From contig OX638340.1 of NCBI GenBank assembly GCA_951812955.1, positions 2,048,001-2,112,000 of the forward strand: DNA of 64,000 nucleotides. The letters run 5' to 3'. Below the pieces are notes generated by a model. The model searched no databases. It saw only the letters and a list, made by a program, of their open reading frames with translations, and had not been told where the DNA came from. This stretch comes from an uncultured Gemmatimonadota bacterium (GTDB lineage: Bacteria; JAAXHH01). The position numbers were made by a program, and so were the translations under genes. How positions within the stretch are numbered: position 1 is the first letter of the stretch; every line of letters begins with the position of its first letter. Shown piece by piece: positions 9,377 through 31,365 of this stretch.

Positions 9377-9650
9377 CGGTCGTGCTAGACGGGGAGTTAG
9401 CGGTGCCCTGTAACCCGCAATCCGCTACAGCGGGGTCGAATTCCCATCCCAAGGATCGCACTTGCGTCGCCGGTATGCGTTACAGCCGGTATTGAAAGTC
9501 AGGTCCTGCGCAACGTGACAACGCCCAACTCCGTCAGGACCGGAAGGTAGCAGCGGTAAGCGACTGAATCGTGTGCCGCGGGAGCGCCTGGCCGGAGCCG
9601 GCGGTACGGATGCCCCGATACGAGGAGATTCGAGGGTGGGTGCACGACCG
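9377..9650 (+). ncRNA. ffs: signal recognition particle RNA, long (Bacillus-type, Alu-domain-containing) form
   Basis: 5' segment 'CGGTCGTGCTAGACGGGGAGTTAGCGGTGCCCTGTAACCCGCAATCCGC...GAATTCCC' closely matches the B. subtilis scRNA 5' domain; domain IV motif 'GTCAGGACCGGAAGGTAGCAGC' at 9534-9555; 3' 'GCACGACCG' pairs with the 5' end; position just upstream of dnaX is the canonical ffs locus. Confidence 0.8.
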
Positions 9651-26201: not shown

Positions 26202-26276
26202 GGGCGATTAGCTCAGTTGGTTCAGAGCGCATGCCTTACAAGCATGAGGTCACTGGTTCGAATCCAGTATCGCCCA
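26202..26276 (+). tRNA. tRNA-Val (anticodon TAC)
   Basis: GGGCGAT acceptor, anticodon loop CTTACAA, GGTTCGAATCC T-loop. Confidence 0.85.
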
Positions 26277-26288
26277 TGCAGCAAATTC

Positions 26289-26363
26289 GGGGGCGTAGTT
26301 CAATCTGGTTAGAGCACTGCCCTGTCACGGCAGAAGTTGCGGGTTCGAGTCCCGTCGTCCCCG
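26289..26363 (+). tRNA. tRNA-Asp (anticodon GTC)
   Basis: anticodon loop CTGTCAC; TTCGAGT T-loop; discriminator G. Confidence 0.85.
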
Positions 26364-26421
26364 TTTATCTCGATCGATAGCCCGTCGAACATGCATGGTT
26401 CCGGCGGGCTATCTTGATTAT

Positions 26422-26505
26422 GCCGGAGTGGTGGAATTGGTAGACGCGAGGGACTCAAAATCCCTTGACCGCAAGGTCGTGTCGGTTCGAGTCCGACCTC
26501 CGGCA
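26422..26505 (+). tRNA. tRNA-Leu (anticodon CAA), long variable arm
   Basis: GCCGGAG acceptor, anticodon loop CTCAAAA, long extra arm. Confidence 0.85.
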
Positions 26506-26596
26506 TCCCGATCCGTCGCCGGACGGGTCCTACCGGGCACGGTAGCATCCCGAATGCGGCACGACCGCCGGTTACCACGCGGATTCCGCTTTTCAG

Positions 26597-27859: not shown

Positions 27860-28123
27860 ATGAAGACGACGCTCAACATCCAGGACGAATTGCTGGCGCG
27901 TGCCAAGCGACACGCGCAGCGGACCGGACGGCCGCTACGCGCCGTGGTAGAAGAGGGTCTGCGCGAAGAGGGTCTGCGCAAGGTGCTCTCAACCGAATCC
28001 CCCCATGATCGCTATATTCTGCCCGACCACAGCGTGGGCGAAGCCGGGGGAAGAGACCCCCTGGAGGCGTACTCCTGGCAGGACCTCCGGGAAGTGATCT
28101 ACGGAGAGCCTCACCTCCCGTGA
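27860..28123 (+). CDS. VapB-type (Rv0623-like) type II antitoxin, orphan
   Basis: 'MKTTLNIQDELLARAKRHAQRTGRPLRAVVEEGLR' matches the VapB antitoxin N-domain; no PIN toxin adjacent; internal 15-bp tandem duplication (EEGLREEGLR). Confidence 0.55.
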   Translation: MKTTLNIQDELLARAKRHAQRTGRPLRAVVEEGLREEGLRKVLSTESPHDRYILPDHSVGEAGGRDPLEAYSWQDLREVIYGEPHLP

Positions 28124-29224: not shown

Positions 29225-29349
29225 TCGCGCCGGAATCATGCGTTGAAGATTTCGCTTGTCAACCAGTAAGCCAGGTCGATATCATAGAATACCCGTTCTG
29301 CCCGTGACTACCGGGACTAATTCCATCACCTGAAAATGGATCGAGGATA

Positions 29350-29925
29350 ATGAAAATCCGAACCCGCTTCGTGATCGCGCTGATCCTGGCCGGGGCCCTG
29401 TCGTGGGCTTCGCAGGCCGGCGCCCAGGTCGGTACCAGCGCCAGTTTCAATCCGGAGCCGCTCACCCTCGTAGATTTCAAGAAGGCATTCAACGGCGATA
29501 CGGGCAAGGTTCGCCTCGTCCTGATGTTCTCTCCTACGTGAGGCCACTGCATAAGCGGCGCCGGGGTGGCGCAGCAGGACATACTGAAACGGTATTCTTC
29601 CGACGACCTCCGGGTCTACGTGGTTTGGCAGCGCATACTTGCTGGAGATTCGGTTAATACGGCGCGGATGGCGGCGCGTCAGGTGTTCAGCGACAAACGG
29701 GTCAGCCAGATGTGGGACCCCGCCCACGCGCTGGGGTTATGGTATAAGCAGTCGGGTGACCTGGAGCACAAGGATCCCATGGTATGGGACGCTTACTTCC
29801 TCTACGGCGCGGATTCCGAATGGAAGGACGCGCCTACCGGGCTGATCGACGCCGGTACCACGGTGTGGAACCTGAGAGAACAGCTTTTGAAATCGGTTGG
29901 ATCTACGATGGAGTCCGGAGACTGA
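29350..29925 (+). CDS. secreted thioredoxin-fold protein with in-frame TGA in a T-U-G-H-C redox motif (candidate selenoprotein; alternatively a pseudogene)
   Basis: ORFs 29350..29541 and 29566..29925 are in the same frame, separated only by TGA at 29539-29541. The stop sits where the first Cys of a CGHC (PDI-like CxxC) motif is expected, directly after a beta-strand 'RLVLMFSPT'. There is an N-terminal signal peptide. A GC hairpin lies at 29558-29572. Confidence 0.5.
29558..29572 (+). promoter_or_regulatory. candidate bacterial SECIS-like hairpin (GCGCC-GGGGT-GGCGC) 17 nt downstream of the in-frame UGA
   Basis: perfect 5-bp GC stem with 5-nt G/U-containing apical loop at the spacing expected for a bSECIS. 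Confidence 0.35.
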
Positions 29926-31365
29926 TCATCCTTCCAGGCTGAGGAGGAAGGGTTCCTCGAATGCCTGGACCAGCCATTGCATGAAGCGGGCGCCGTCCGC
30001 GCCGTCTATGAGCCGGTGATCATAAGAGATCATCAACGGCAGCATGAGGCGGGGCTGAAACGCGCCGTCGATGTAAACCTGTTCCATGCGGCTGCGGGCG
30101 AGGCCGAGGATGGCCACGTCCGGCGCATTCACGATCGGTGCGAAGAAGGTTCCGCCGAACCCACCCAGGTTCGAGATCGTGAAAGTACTTCCCTGCATGT
30201 CGTCCGGCGAAAGCTTCCTGTCCCGCGCCCGGCCGGCGATCTCCGCCAACTCGATGGACAGCTCGATCATGTTCTTCCGGTCGACGTCCCGAATTACCGG
30301 CACGACCAGGCCGCGGTCCGTATCCACCGCCACACCCACGTGGTAGTATTTCTTGTAGACGATTTCGTGGCTTGCCATGTCGACGCTGGCGTTGAACCGT
30401 GGGAACCGCTTTAGCGCCGCGGCCACGATCTTCAGGGCGATTGCCGTCATGGTCAGTTTGCCGCCTGCGGCTTCGGCCGCGGGGCCGAACTGTTTGCGCA
30501 GGGCTTCCATATCGGTGACATCGGCCTTGTCCCCGTAGGTGACGTGGGGGATATTCGTCCACGCGGCGGACAGGTGCTCCGCGGCGGCCCGGCGCAGGTT
30601 GCTCATCGGCTCGGTTTCTACCGGGCCCCATTTGGAGAAGTCCGGCAGAGGCGCCGAAGGAGCGGGACCGGAAGTCGCCCCCCGGCCGGCGCTCAATTGC
30701 CTGGAATGTGATTTGACGTCTTCGACGGATATCCGGCCGGCGGGACCGGTCCCCGGTACCTGGCCGACGTCGAGCCCGATCTCCCGGGCAAAGCGGCGAA
30801 CGGAAGGCGCCGCTGGTACAGGCGCGCCTGAAGAGACGGCCGGAGCGGGCGGTATTGTCGGCGATGTCGGTGTCGGCGGCGTCGGTTCCTCCGCGGGACC
30901 AGTTTTCGCGGCAGGTGGTGCGCCGGTCTCCGGTGGTGCCTGTGTGGATGAATCCGCCTCTCCGCCGGCGTCCGCCTTGCCATCTCCTACAGTAGAGGAA
31001 GGCTCACCGGCAACTGTCTCCGAGGCCTTGGCAGCGGGCGCATCGGCAACCGTCTCCGGGGCCTCGGCAACAGGAGCTTCGGCCTCCGCCTGTCCGTCCG
31101 TTTCCGTTCCGGCGGCGGTCTCACTCCCCGCATCTTCGTACATGAGCACCGGAGCGCCCACGTCGGCCGTTGCGCCGTTCTCCACGAGGATTTCCGTGAC
31201 CACGCCGCTGAATCCCGACGGAACCTCGAGGTTGGCCTTGTCGGTCTCGATCTCCAGGACGGGCTGGTTTTCTTCGACTTTATCCCCGACCTCGACCAGG
31301 ATGCCGACTACGGTCCCGGCGTCTATGTTCTCGCCGAGGGCTGGAAGATTGAAAGGCATCGCCAT
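29926..31365 (-). CDS. aceF: dihydrolipoamide acetyltransferase, E2 component of the pyruvate dehydrogenase complex
   Basis: single lipoyl domain ('IETDKANLEV'), Ala/Pro-rich linkers, E3-binding domain, C-terminal catalytic 'DHRLIDGA' motif; immediately downstream of aceE. Confidence 0.85.
   Translation of the reverse strand: MAMPFNLPALGENIDAGTVVGILVEVGDKVEENQPVLEIETDKANLEVPSGFSGVVTEILVENGATADVGAPVLMYEDAGSETAAGTETDGQAEAEAPVAEAPETVADAPAAKASETVAGEPSSTVGDGKADAGGEADSSTQAPPETGAPPAAKTGPAEEPTPPTPTSPTIPPAPAVSSGAPVPAAPSVRRFAREIGLDVGQVPGTGPAGRISVEDVKSHSRQLSAGRGATSGPAPSAPLPDFSKWGPVETEPMSNLRRAAAEHLSAAWTNIPHVTYGDKADVTDMEALRKQFGPAAEAAGGKLTMTAIALKIVAAALKRFPRFNASVDMASHEIVYKKYYHVGVAVDTDRGLVVPVIRDVDRKNMIELSIELAEIAGRARDRKLSPDDMQGSTFTISNLGGFGGTFFAPIVNAPDVAILGLARSRMEQVYIDGAFQPRLMLPLMISYDHRLIDGADGARFMQWLVQAFEEPFLLSLEG

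Follow-up and report, generated by a model that had tools for sequence, protein, structure and literature searches.

Within a 64,000-nucleotide stretch of DNA from an uncultured Gemmatimonadota bacterium (hereafter the window, meaning the whole stretch that was analysed), two adjacent open reading frames are separated by a single TGA located where the first cysteine of a CxxC active site would be expected. Does this codon end a short gene, or is it decoded as selenocysteine (Sec) in the middle of a longer one? The second answer had been proposed in an original prediction made from the letters alone. The comparisons described here lead us to conclude that positions 29350-29925 (forward strand) very probably constitute one gene, encoding an exported thioredoxin-fold selenoprotein.

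One reading frame interrupted by a single TGA

As had been claimed, the ORFs at 29350-29541 and 29566-29925 belong to a single frame, the sole interruption of which is the TGA at positions 29539-41. The read-through product would be MKIRTRFVIALILAGALSWASQAGA/QVG...KVRLVLMFSPT-[TGA]-GHC-ISGAGVAQQDIL..., where the slash marks the probable signal peptide cleavage. The features predicted for the locus are the following:

29256..29285, + strand: promoter-like site TTGTCA-18-TATCAT (consensus scan only, 10/12 matches)
29343..29347, + strand: Shine-Dalgarno-like GAGGA, purine-rich, just 5' of ATG 29350 (read from the sequence)
29350..29925, + strand: predicted coding sequence for a 191-residue product (Sec at position 64, the other 190 residues standard), with the real stop TGA at 29923-25
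29350..29424, + strand: signal peptide MKIRTRFVIALILAGALSWASQAGA, probable cleavage AGA/QV (sequence inspection)
29539..29550, + strand: predicted active-site motif U-G-H-C, with TGA 29539-41 as the Sec codon and TGC 29548-50 as the resolving Cys
29558..29572, + strand: bSECIS-like hairpin, stem 29558-29563 / 29567-29572, loop GGG 29564-66

The promoter-like site sits about 65 nt 5' of the start codon. A motif comparable to GAGGA was not seen before GTG 29566, which is the start used by gene callers for the downstream ORF. At its 3' end the gene meets the convergent PDH E2 gene of the reverse strand: the two stop codons abut in the sequence TGATCA at 29923-29928, with no intergenic base and no terminator-like site at these positions.

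Same-frame ORF pairs split by a TGA are frequent in the window, whose GC content is 62%; we counted on the order of 200 such pairs, each split by one TGA and having at least 40 codons on either side. The ORF pair alone is thus not beyond chance, nor is the hairpin that follows it unusually stable, so that the case rests on comparison with related loci. The abundance of chance pairs favours one alternative, namely that the TGA is an ordinary stop which leaves two small genes, one for a secreted peptide of 63 residues and one for a cytoplasmic protein of 119, or that the locus is a pseudogene or carries an assembly error. The existing annotation points the same way, gene callers and NCBI giving pieces of 63 aa and 118 aa, 'hypothetical protein'. 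The related loci, to which we now turn, make this alternative extremely unlikely. A scan of the window for TGA-split coding ORFs with a nearby Cys returned no second selenoprotein candidate.

The TGA is conserved and takes the place of a cysteine

A search with the read-through protein retrieved 23 close relatives that were 71-96% identical, plus two at 35-41%. The close relatives in the database were all pieces of about 118 residues starting just 3' of the TGA, and they bear the NCBI label 'hypothetical protein' (Gemmatimonadetes and Zixibacteria MAGs). The DNA of three of them contains the same in-frame TGA, in the contexts SPT-[TGA]-GQC, SPT-[TGA]-PTC and SPT-[TGA]-PVC. A scan of one genome per species yielded 43 loci, and the TGA motif was present in every intact one, with the part upstream conserved too. 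In all, the in-frame TGA was found within the motif [S/A]PT-U-x-x-C in 45 of the 45 TGA-carrying homologous loci with DNA (37 distinct sequences). These loci, 34-99% identical, span at least four phyla; their MAGs are assigned to Gemmatimonadota/'Latescibacterota', Dormibacterota, Chloroflexota and Acidobacteriota, and several of those in the first group are sponge-derived according to the isolate name.

In the 45 loci both the frame and the amino-acid conservation run on past the TGA. Three residues are invariant upstream of it (F47, R55 and P62) and five downstream (W93, D100, R117, D147 and W158). In the Gemmatimonadota clade the active site is UGHC, UGQC or UGVC; in the rest of the family it is U-P-x-C or U-A-x-C, and the overall consensus is U/C-P-x-C. 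When a profile of the C-terminal part was used, 1290 cluster representatives (50% identity clusters) were collected at E<=1e-3, and at least 74 of the best 150 of these 1290 start inside helix 1, just past the Sec site, like the second ORF of the window. The family appears to be large, with Sec forms in the majority. No homolog was detected by tblastn against 72,556 plasmids.

Whether a cysteine aligns to the U position had been named as a check of the original prediction, and it does so in 22 full-length representatives, which read SPTCPVC, SPTCPAC, SPTCPEC and similar, as well as in about 50 metagenome loci having TGC or TGT at the TGA column. When Sec and Cys forms are aligned jointly, every sequence has U or C in this column, and nearly all have the second Cys. 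A relative with Gly at this site (P0065) was considered as a possible mistranslation of TGA and rejected, its codon being a true GGT.

An ordinary stop is hard to reconcile with these results. The identical codon, TGA, recurs in 45 independent assemblies across phyla, and conservation spans it, the 8 codons from there to the called GTG being conserved as well. Full-length homologs carry a Cys codon at the position of the TGA. Gene callers place the start of the second piece differently from one homolog to another, and that start lacks a Shine-Dalgarno sequence. Furthermore, according to the structure model described below, a stop would part beta-strand 1 and the CxxC from the remainder of one thioredoxin domain. 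The view that the locus is one gene with a recoded UGA was thus upheld, the TGA, the frame and the hairpin all being conserved in the TGA-form loci examined.

A covarying hairpin is specific to the TGA forms

A SECIS-like hairpin 17 nt past the UGA had also been predicted and is indeed present. Its sequence is GCGCC GGGGU GGCGC, which can alternatively be read as 6 bp, including a G-U closing pair, with a GGG loop; in the clade of the window a 2-bp extension (29555-56 with 29574-75) is possible. The stem begins 17 nt past the UGA and the loop 23 nt past it, leaving 22 nt between. Bacterial SECIS elements, as described in the bSECISearch literature, have an apical loop about 16-37 nt after the UGA and a G in the loop. 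The hairpin agrees with these literature values in spacing and in loop. Among Sec forms the loop is GGG, GUU, GGC, GGU or GUG.

Folding of the region 3' of the UGA had been suggested as a further check; the hairpin is there, but the folding energy of the single sequence was no better than that of shuffled sequences (z = +0.46 and +0.72), a calculation that is uninformative in GC-rich coding sequence. A search of Rfam with gathering and E-value thresholds gave no matching SECIS model.

We aligned 30 Sec-form sequences without gaps and found the 6-bp stem and 3-nt loop in a fixed register, with 99.4% of the cells paired, whereas control registers slid by 1-3 nt showed 28-57% pairing. Compensatory changes occur in two of the six pairs (C-G to G-C between clades at one, C-G to U-A at another), and the covariation score was reached by 0 of 500 shuffles. 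The bases of the hairpin also encode a conserved Gly-Ala-(Gly/Arg), so part of their conservation is driven by the protein, and for this reason we set the Sec forms against the Cys forms. Of the 37 distinct Sec forms 36 have the complete hairpin, as against 1 of 38 Cys forms (Fisher p = 4e-19, a value that overstates independence because the Sec-form sequences are phylogenetically related, although they do span several phyla). At the third positions of the five hairpin codons, entropy was 0-0.7 bit in the Sec forms compared with 1.55-1.88 bit in the Cys forms; beyond the hairpin it was similar in both. Synonymous sites in the hairpin are therefore frozen in the Sec forms only. Conserved, covarying and specific to UGA forms, the hairpin qualifies as a SECIS by comparative criteria, albeit a short one of 6 bp and a 3-nt loop.

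Sec forms of a second subfamily (L110 and L111) have a different hairpin, of 8 bp and 9 nt after the UGA, which is absent from L112, the one Cys-form relative of that subfamily examined. Two loci carry a complete Sec-type hairpin behind another codon: L063, where the codon at 667 is TGC (Cys), and L109 (806-1300), a Gly form with GGT. They look like recent replacements of Sec in which a fossil SECIS would have been kept.

Selenocysteine is the most plausible reading of the UGA

The UGA might also be read through without selenocysteine, either being reassigned (to Trp or Gly) or being decoded by a near-cognate tRNA (Cys or Trp) with the aid of the hairpin. Two database relatives, P0031 and P0061, are recorded with Trp at the Sec site (protein records only), as this alternative would have it. 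The same may be said of the search for the Sec machinery in the window and its flanks: no tRNA-Sec was found by ARAGORN in the 64-kb window and 45 loci, and neither selB nor selD by tblastn of the E. coli SelB and SelD proteins against the window and loci L001-L048, these searches covering about 1 Mb of flanks in related loci. However, ychF and the selenoprotein gene itself both terminate in TGA, which argues that UGA is a stop in this genome and is not reassigned. The recoded site is the catalytic Cys column of a CxxC, the classical Sec/Cys signature, and the hairpin, at bSECIS spacing, is specific to the TGA forms, as judged from the single complete copy among the 38 Cys forms. The one 'Gly' variant that was checked, P0065, has GGT and not TGA. 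As indirect support, SelA, SelB and SelD are all encoded in each of the two Gemmatimonadetes bins obtained from the sponge Aplysina aerophoba (Slaby et al. 2017, PMC5649159, Table S4). Altogether, we regard read-through without selenocysteine as very unlikely.

The protein is predicted to be an exported thioredoxin fold

Sequence models do not recognise the protein. With Pfam-A, the window protein had no match even when E was allowed up to 10, and six single-domain Cys homologs had none up to E = 0.1. No NCBIfam 20.0 model recognised the domain when the window protein and ten homologs were scanned with hmmscan, and a profile search of the PDB returned nothing below E = 0.1, the best value being E = 0.14. 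We modelled P0026, a Cys homolog that is 35% identical to the window protein, with an alignment of 60 sequences (pLDDT 88, about 97 in the core). The topology of the model, beta1 - CxxC - alpha1 and so on, is that of a thioredoxin fold, and the U-G-H-C motif of the window is placed between beta-strand 1 and helix 1; the model thus agrees with the expectation of a U-x-x-C straight after beta-strand 1. The nearest folds are the extracytoplasmic reductases TlpA, ResA, DsbE and CcmG. By way of this homolog, the window protein is predicted to have a thioredoxin fold with its active site between beta-strand 1 and helix 1.

The N-terminal signal peptide that had been claimed was recognised by inspection, and export signals are found in the stand-alone homologs as well: all of them have a signal peptide, a lipobox-like sequence or a single N-terminal membrane anchor (again by inspection). 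The exception to these N-terminal export signals is a MerA-fused member. From its signal peptide (AGA/Q), the window protein is predicted to be extracytoplasmic.

Genomic context differs between branches of the family

Throughout the Gemmatimonadota clade the order ychF - gene - PDH E2/E1 is kept. These neighbours of the window gene are housekeeping genes, and the genomic context of the window ortholog gives no functional hint; in particular, the window gene, flanked by ychF and PDH E2/E1, shows no linkage to merR, merT or merA. A tRNA-Val/Asp/Leu cluster upstream (window 26202-26508) and rpsF-rpsR-rplI are also syntenic with the selenoprotein gene in this clade (L001-L027), and the S6/S18/L9 genes again lie upstream of Sec forms in Pyrinomonadaceae loci. 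One close relative (L002:5998-8844) has two additional genes, for an AAA_13 ATPase and a Bflower-domain protein, that separate ychF from the selenoprotein gene, which marks a variable spot within an otherwise syntenic region. Two further elements of the window were recorded in passing. At 27860-28123 (forward strand), between an M20 peptidase gene and ychF, is an ORF for an 87-residue VapB-like antitoxin (PF09957, 22.7 bits, just below the cut-off), no gene being called there in the syntenic relative L001. At 9380-9647 (forward strand), a bacterial large-type SRP RNA (RF01854, 160 bits) adjoins a tRNA-Ser/tRNA-Ala pair.

Elsewhere in the family, two kinds of partner recur. The first is a CcdA-like membrane protein, the assignment of which rests on motifs: its gene is directly downstream of a Sec form in Terriglobales (L039) and adjoins the gene in three Cys-form loci (L064-66), and P0141 is a fusion with a CcdA-like domain. 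The second consists of mer-type genes. In soil metagenomes, Cys forms follow MerR in 12 loci (TIGR02051, 155 bits, above cut-off) and a MerT-like Cys-Cys membrane protein in 16 loci, and the Sec form L110 is directly 3' of a MerT-like gene and a DUF2703-like gene. A conserved module in which a small DUF2703/'DF family'-like protein and a MerT-like Cys-Cys membrane protein accompany a member of the window family is seen at L110:4334-5706 and at L112:6888-8582, the latter headed by MerR. The mer-linked members have an extra vicinal Cys-Cys.

The domain also occurs in fusions. At L052:212-2200, a Sec-form domain that has SPT-[TGA]-PVC and the same hairpin but lacks a signal peptide continues in frame into a full MerA (TIGR02053, 516 bits, above cut-off), and its product would be a selenocysteine-containing MerA. 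Further fusions of the family domain involve HMA and 'DF family (seleno)protein' domains. The merR-merT-like, CcdA and MerA contexts suggest a role in periplasmic thiol/selenol redox or in the handling of Hg(II) and other soft metals. We conclude that the family as a whole is an exported redox module built on a selenol or a thiol.

A redox function is the most likely for the window protein

We propose the following sequence of events. The ribosome would reach the UGA at 29539-41, where the 6-bp hairpin (29558-29572) would recruit SelB carrying Sec-tRNA(Sec); selenocysteine would be inserted at the UGA and translation would proceed to the real stop, TGA 29923-25. The product would comprise a cleavable signal peptide and a TlpA/ResA/DsbE-like thioredoxin domain with Sec64-Gly-His-Cys67 at the N-terminus of helix 1. 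The dependence of the recoding on SelB and the formation of a selenenylsulfide (Se-S) redox couple are what we infer from the features of the locus and of the predicted active site. Drawing on relatives that are 25-35% identical, we think it most likely that the protein serves as a periplasmic thiol/selenol-disulfide reductant and would itself be reduced via a CcdA/DsbD-type membrane partner, while some branches may be specialised in capturing Hg(II) or other soft metals or in handing them over.

A different function can be conceived for the same selenoprotein: the window ortholog would be a binder of mercury or soft metals, analogous to MerP or NmerA, rather than a redox enzyme, capturing Hg(II) on the selenolate-thiolate pair and passing it to a transporter or a reductase. 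The 12-16 loci in which Cys forms come after merR and a merT-like gene agree with such a function, as do the Sec form L110 in its merT-like module, the fusions with HMA and DF-family domains, the extra vicinal Cys-Cys of mer-linked members and, in L052, the replacement of the usual N-terminal metal-binding domain of MerA by a Sec-form domain. Nevertheless, in the window as in all of the Gemmatimonadota clade the gene is placed between ychF and the PDH operon, away from any mer gene, and the extra Cys-Cys is missing; identity to the mer-linked branch is low, at 25-35%, and other branches pair with CcdA-like genes, as do disulfide reductases. Thiol-disulfide exchange and metal binding are, besides, compatible within one fold; in Sco proteins, which have a thioredoxin-type fold, the two coexist. 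For the window ortholog we thus hold metal binding to be possible but rather unlikely, and a periplasmic reductant remains the preferred function.

A broader proposal, which we put forward as speculative and consider doubtful, is that this previously unrecognised family, with Sec as the dominant form, originally served to capture Hg(II) or other soft metals on a selenolate-thiolate pair and to hand them on. If this were true, the family would stand in both for the periplasmic MerP and for the cytoplasmic N-terminal domain of MerA, and the sponge-symbiont and soil orthologs, the window gene included, would be constitutive, housekeeping-linked versions of the detoxification system.

Comparison with known systems

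The family can be set against three groups of known proteins. To the first, TlpA, ResA, CcmG (DsbE) and Mpt53 (CDD cd02966), the relation is undetectable by sequence: the TlpA-like models tested (the Pfam Redoxin, AhpC-TSA and Thioredoxin families and the NCBIfam dsbE and ResA models) did not match. Unlike these families, most members of the window family have Sec in place of the first Cys, and a conserved W-D motif and other invariant residues are specific to them.

The second group comprises PDI and DsbA-type proteins with CGHC or CPHC sites. The tetrapeptide U-G-H-C of the window does resemble the CGHC of PDI, and a PDI-like site had been part of the original prediction. This reading fails, since the PDI domain model TIGR01126 gave 12.1 bits with the window protein, against a cut-off of 107.2, and since the Gly-His pair is restricted, within the family, to part of the Gemmatimonadota clade. 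In contrast to DsbA, the model of P0026 has no DsbA-type helical insertion.

The third group is formed by MerP and the N-terminal domain of MerA, whose slot, after merR-merT or at the N-terminus of MerA, is taken by family members in related loci. With MerP/NmerA and with the HMA-type UxxU protein NF041115 the family shares two soft ligands spaced x-x apart. It differs from the HMA modules of MerP and MerA in having a thioredoxin fold and not the ferredoxin-like HMA fold, and the window gene has no mer context.

Among catalogued selenoproteins, an inventory of 2026 lists 119 prokaryotic families, every one of them linked to a model from Pfam, NCBIfam or CDD (PMC13188914). Its thioredoxin-fold UxxC families are Sec-thioredoxin, the Prx-like thiol:disulfide oxidoreductase and the thiol:disulfide interchange protein, together with DsbA-like, DsbG-like, SaoT, the HUIPC-motif family and GOS_C (PMC13188914). 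None of the Pfam or NCBIfam models of the inventory families matches the window protein or its Cys homologs, in a comparison covering the entries other than the two defined only by CDD cd02966 ('thiol-disulfide isomerase-like' and 'UGC-containing TlpA family'). Among the NCBIfam selenoprotein models, SaoT NF040730, HUIPC NF047660, GOS_C NF045500, DsbG-like NF041057, VPGUxxT NF041383 and others all stayed below cut-off.

The window family has no Pfam or NCBIfam model, and gene callers cut the gene in two in every genome examined. Because it is split in this way and its pieces are filed as hypothetical proteins, the family is absent from selenoproteome counts. The phyla concerned, rarely discussed as selenium users, are Acidobacteriota, Dormibacterota, Chloroflexota and, for its sponge-associated members, Gemmatimonadota. 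With a curated model, the full-length protein could be recovered in many MAGs and those lineages would gain an additional marker of the Sec trait, and the links to merR-merT-like genes and MerA suggest that selenocysteine may be used in mercury handling, an idea open to testing. With the known thioredoxin-fold UxxC selenoproteins the family shares Sec in place of the first Cys of CxxC, the existence of Cys homologs and a bSECIS close behind the UGA. Relative to the entries compared, we would class it as a new family, so far unannotated, within a familiar kind, that of the thioredoxin-fold UxxC selenoproteins with a bSECIS.
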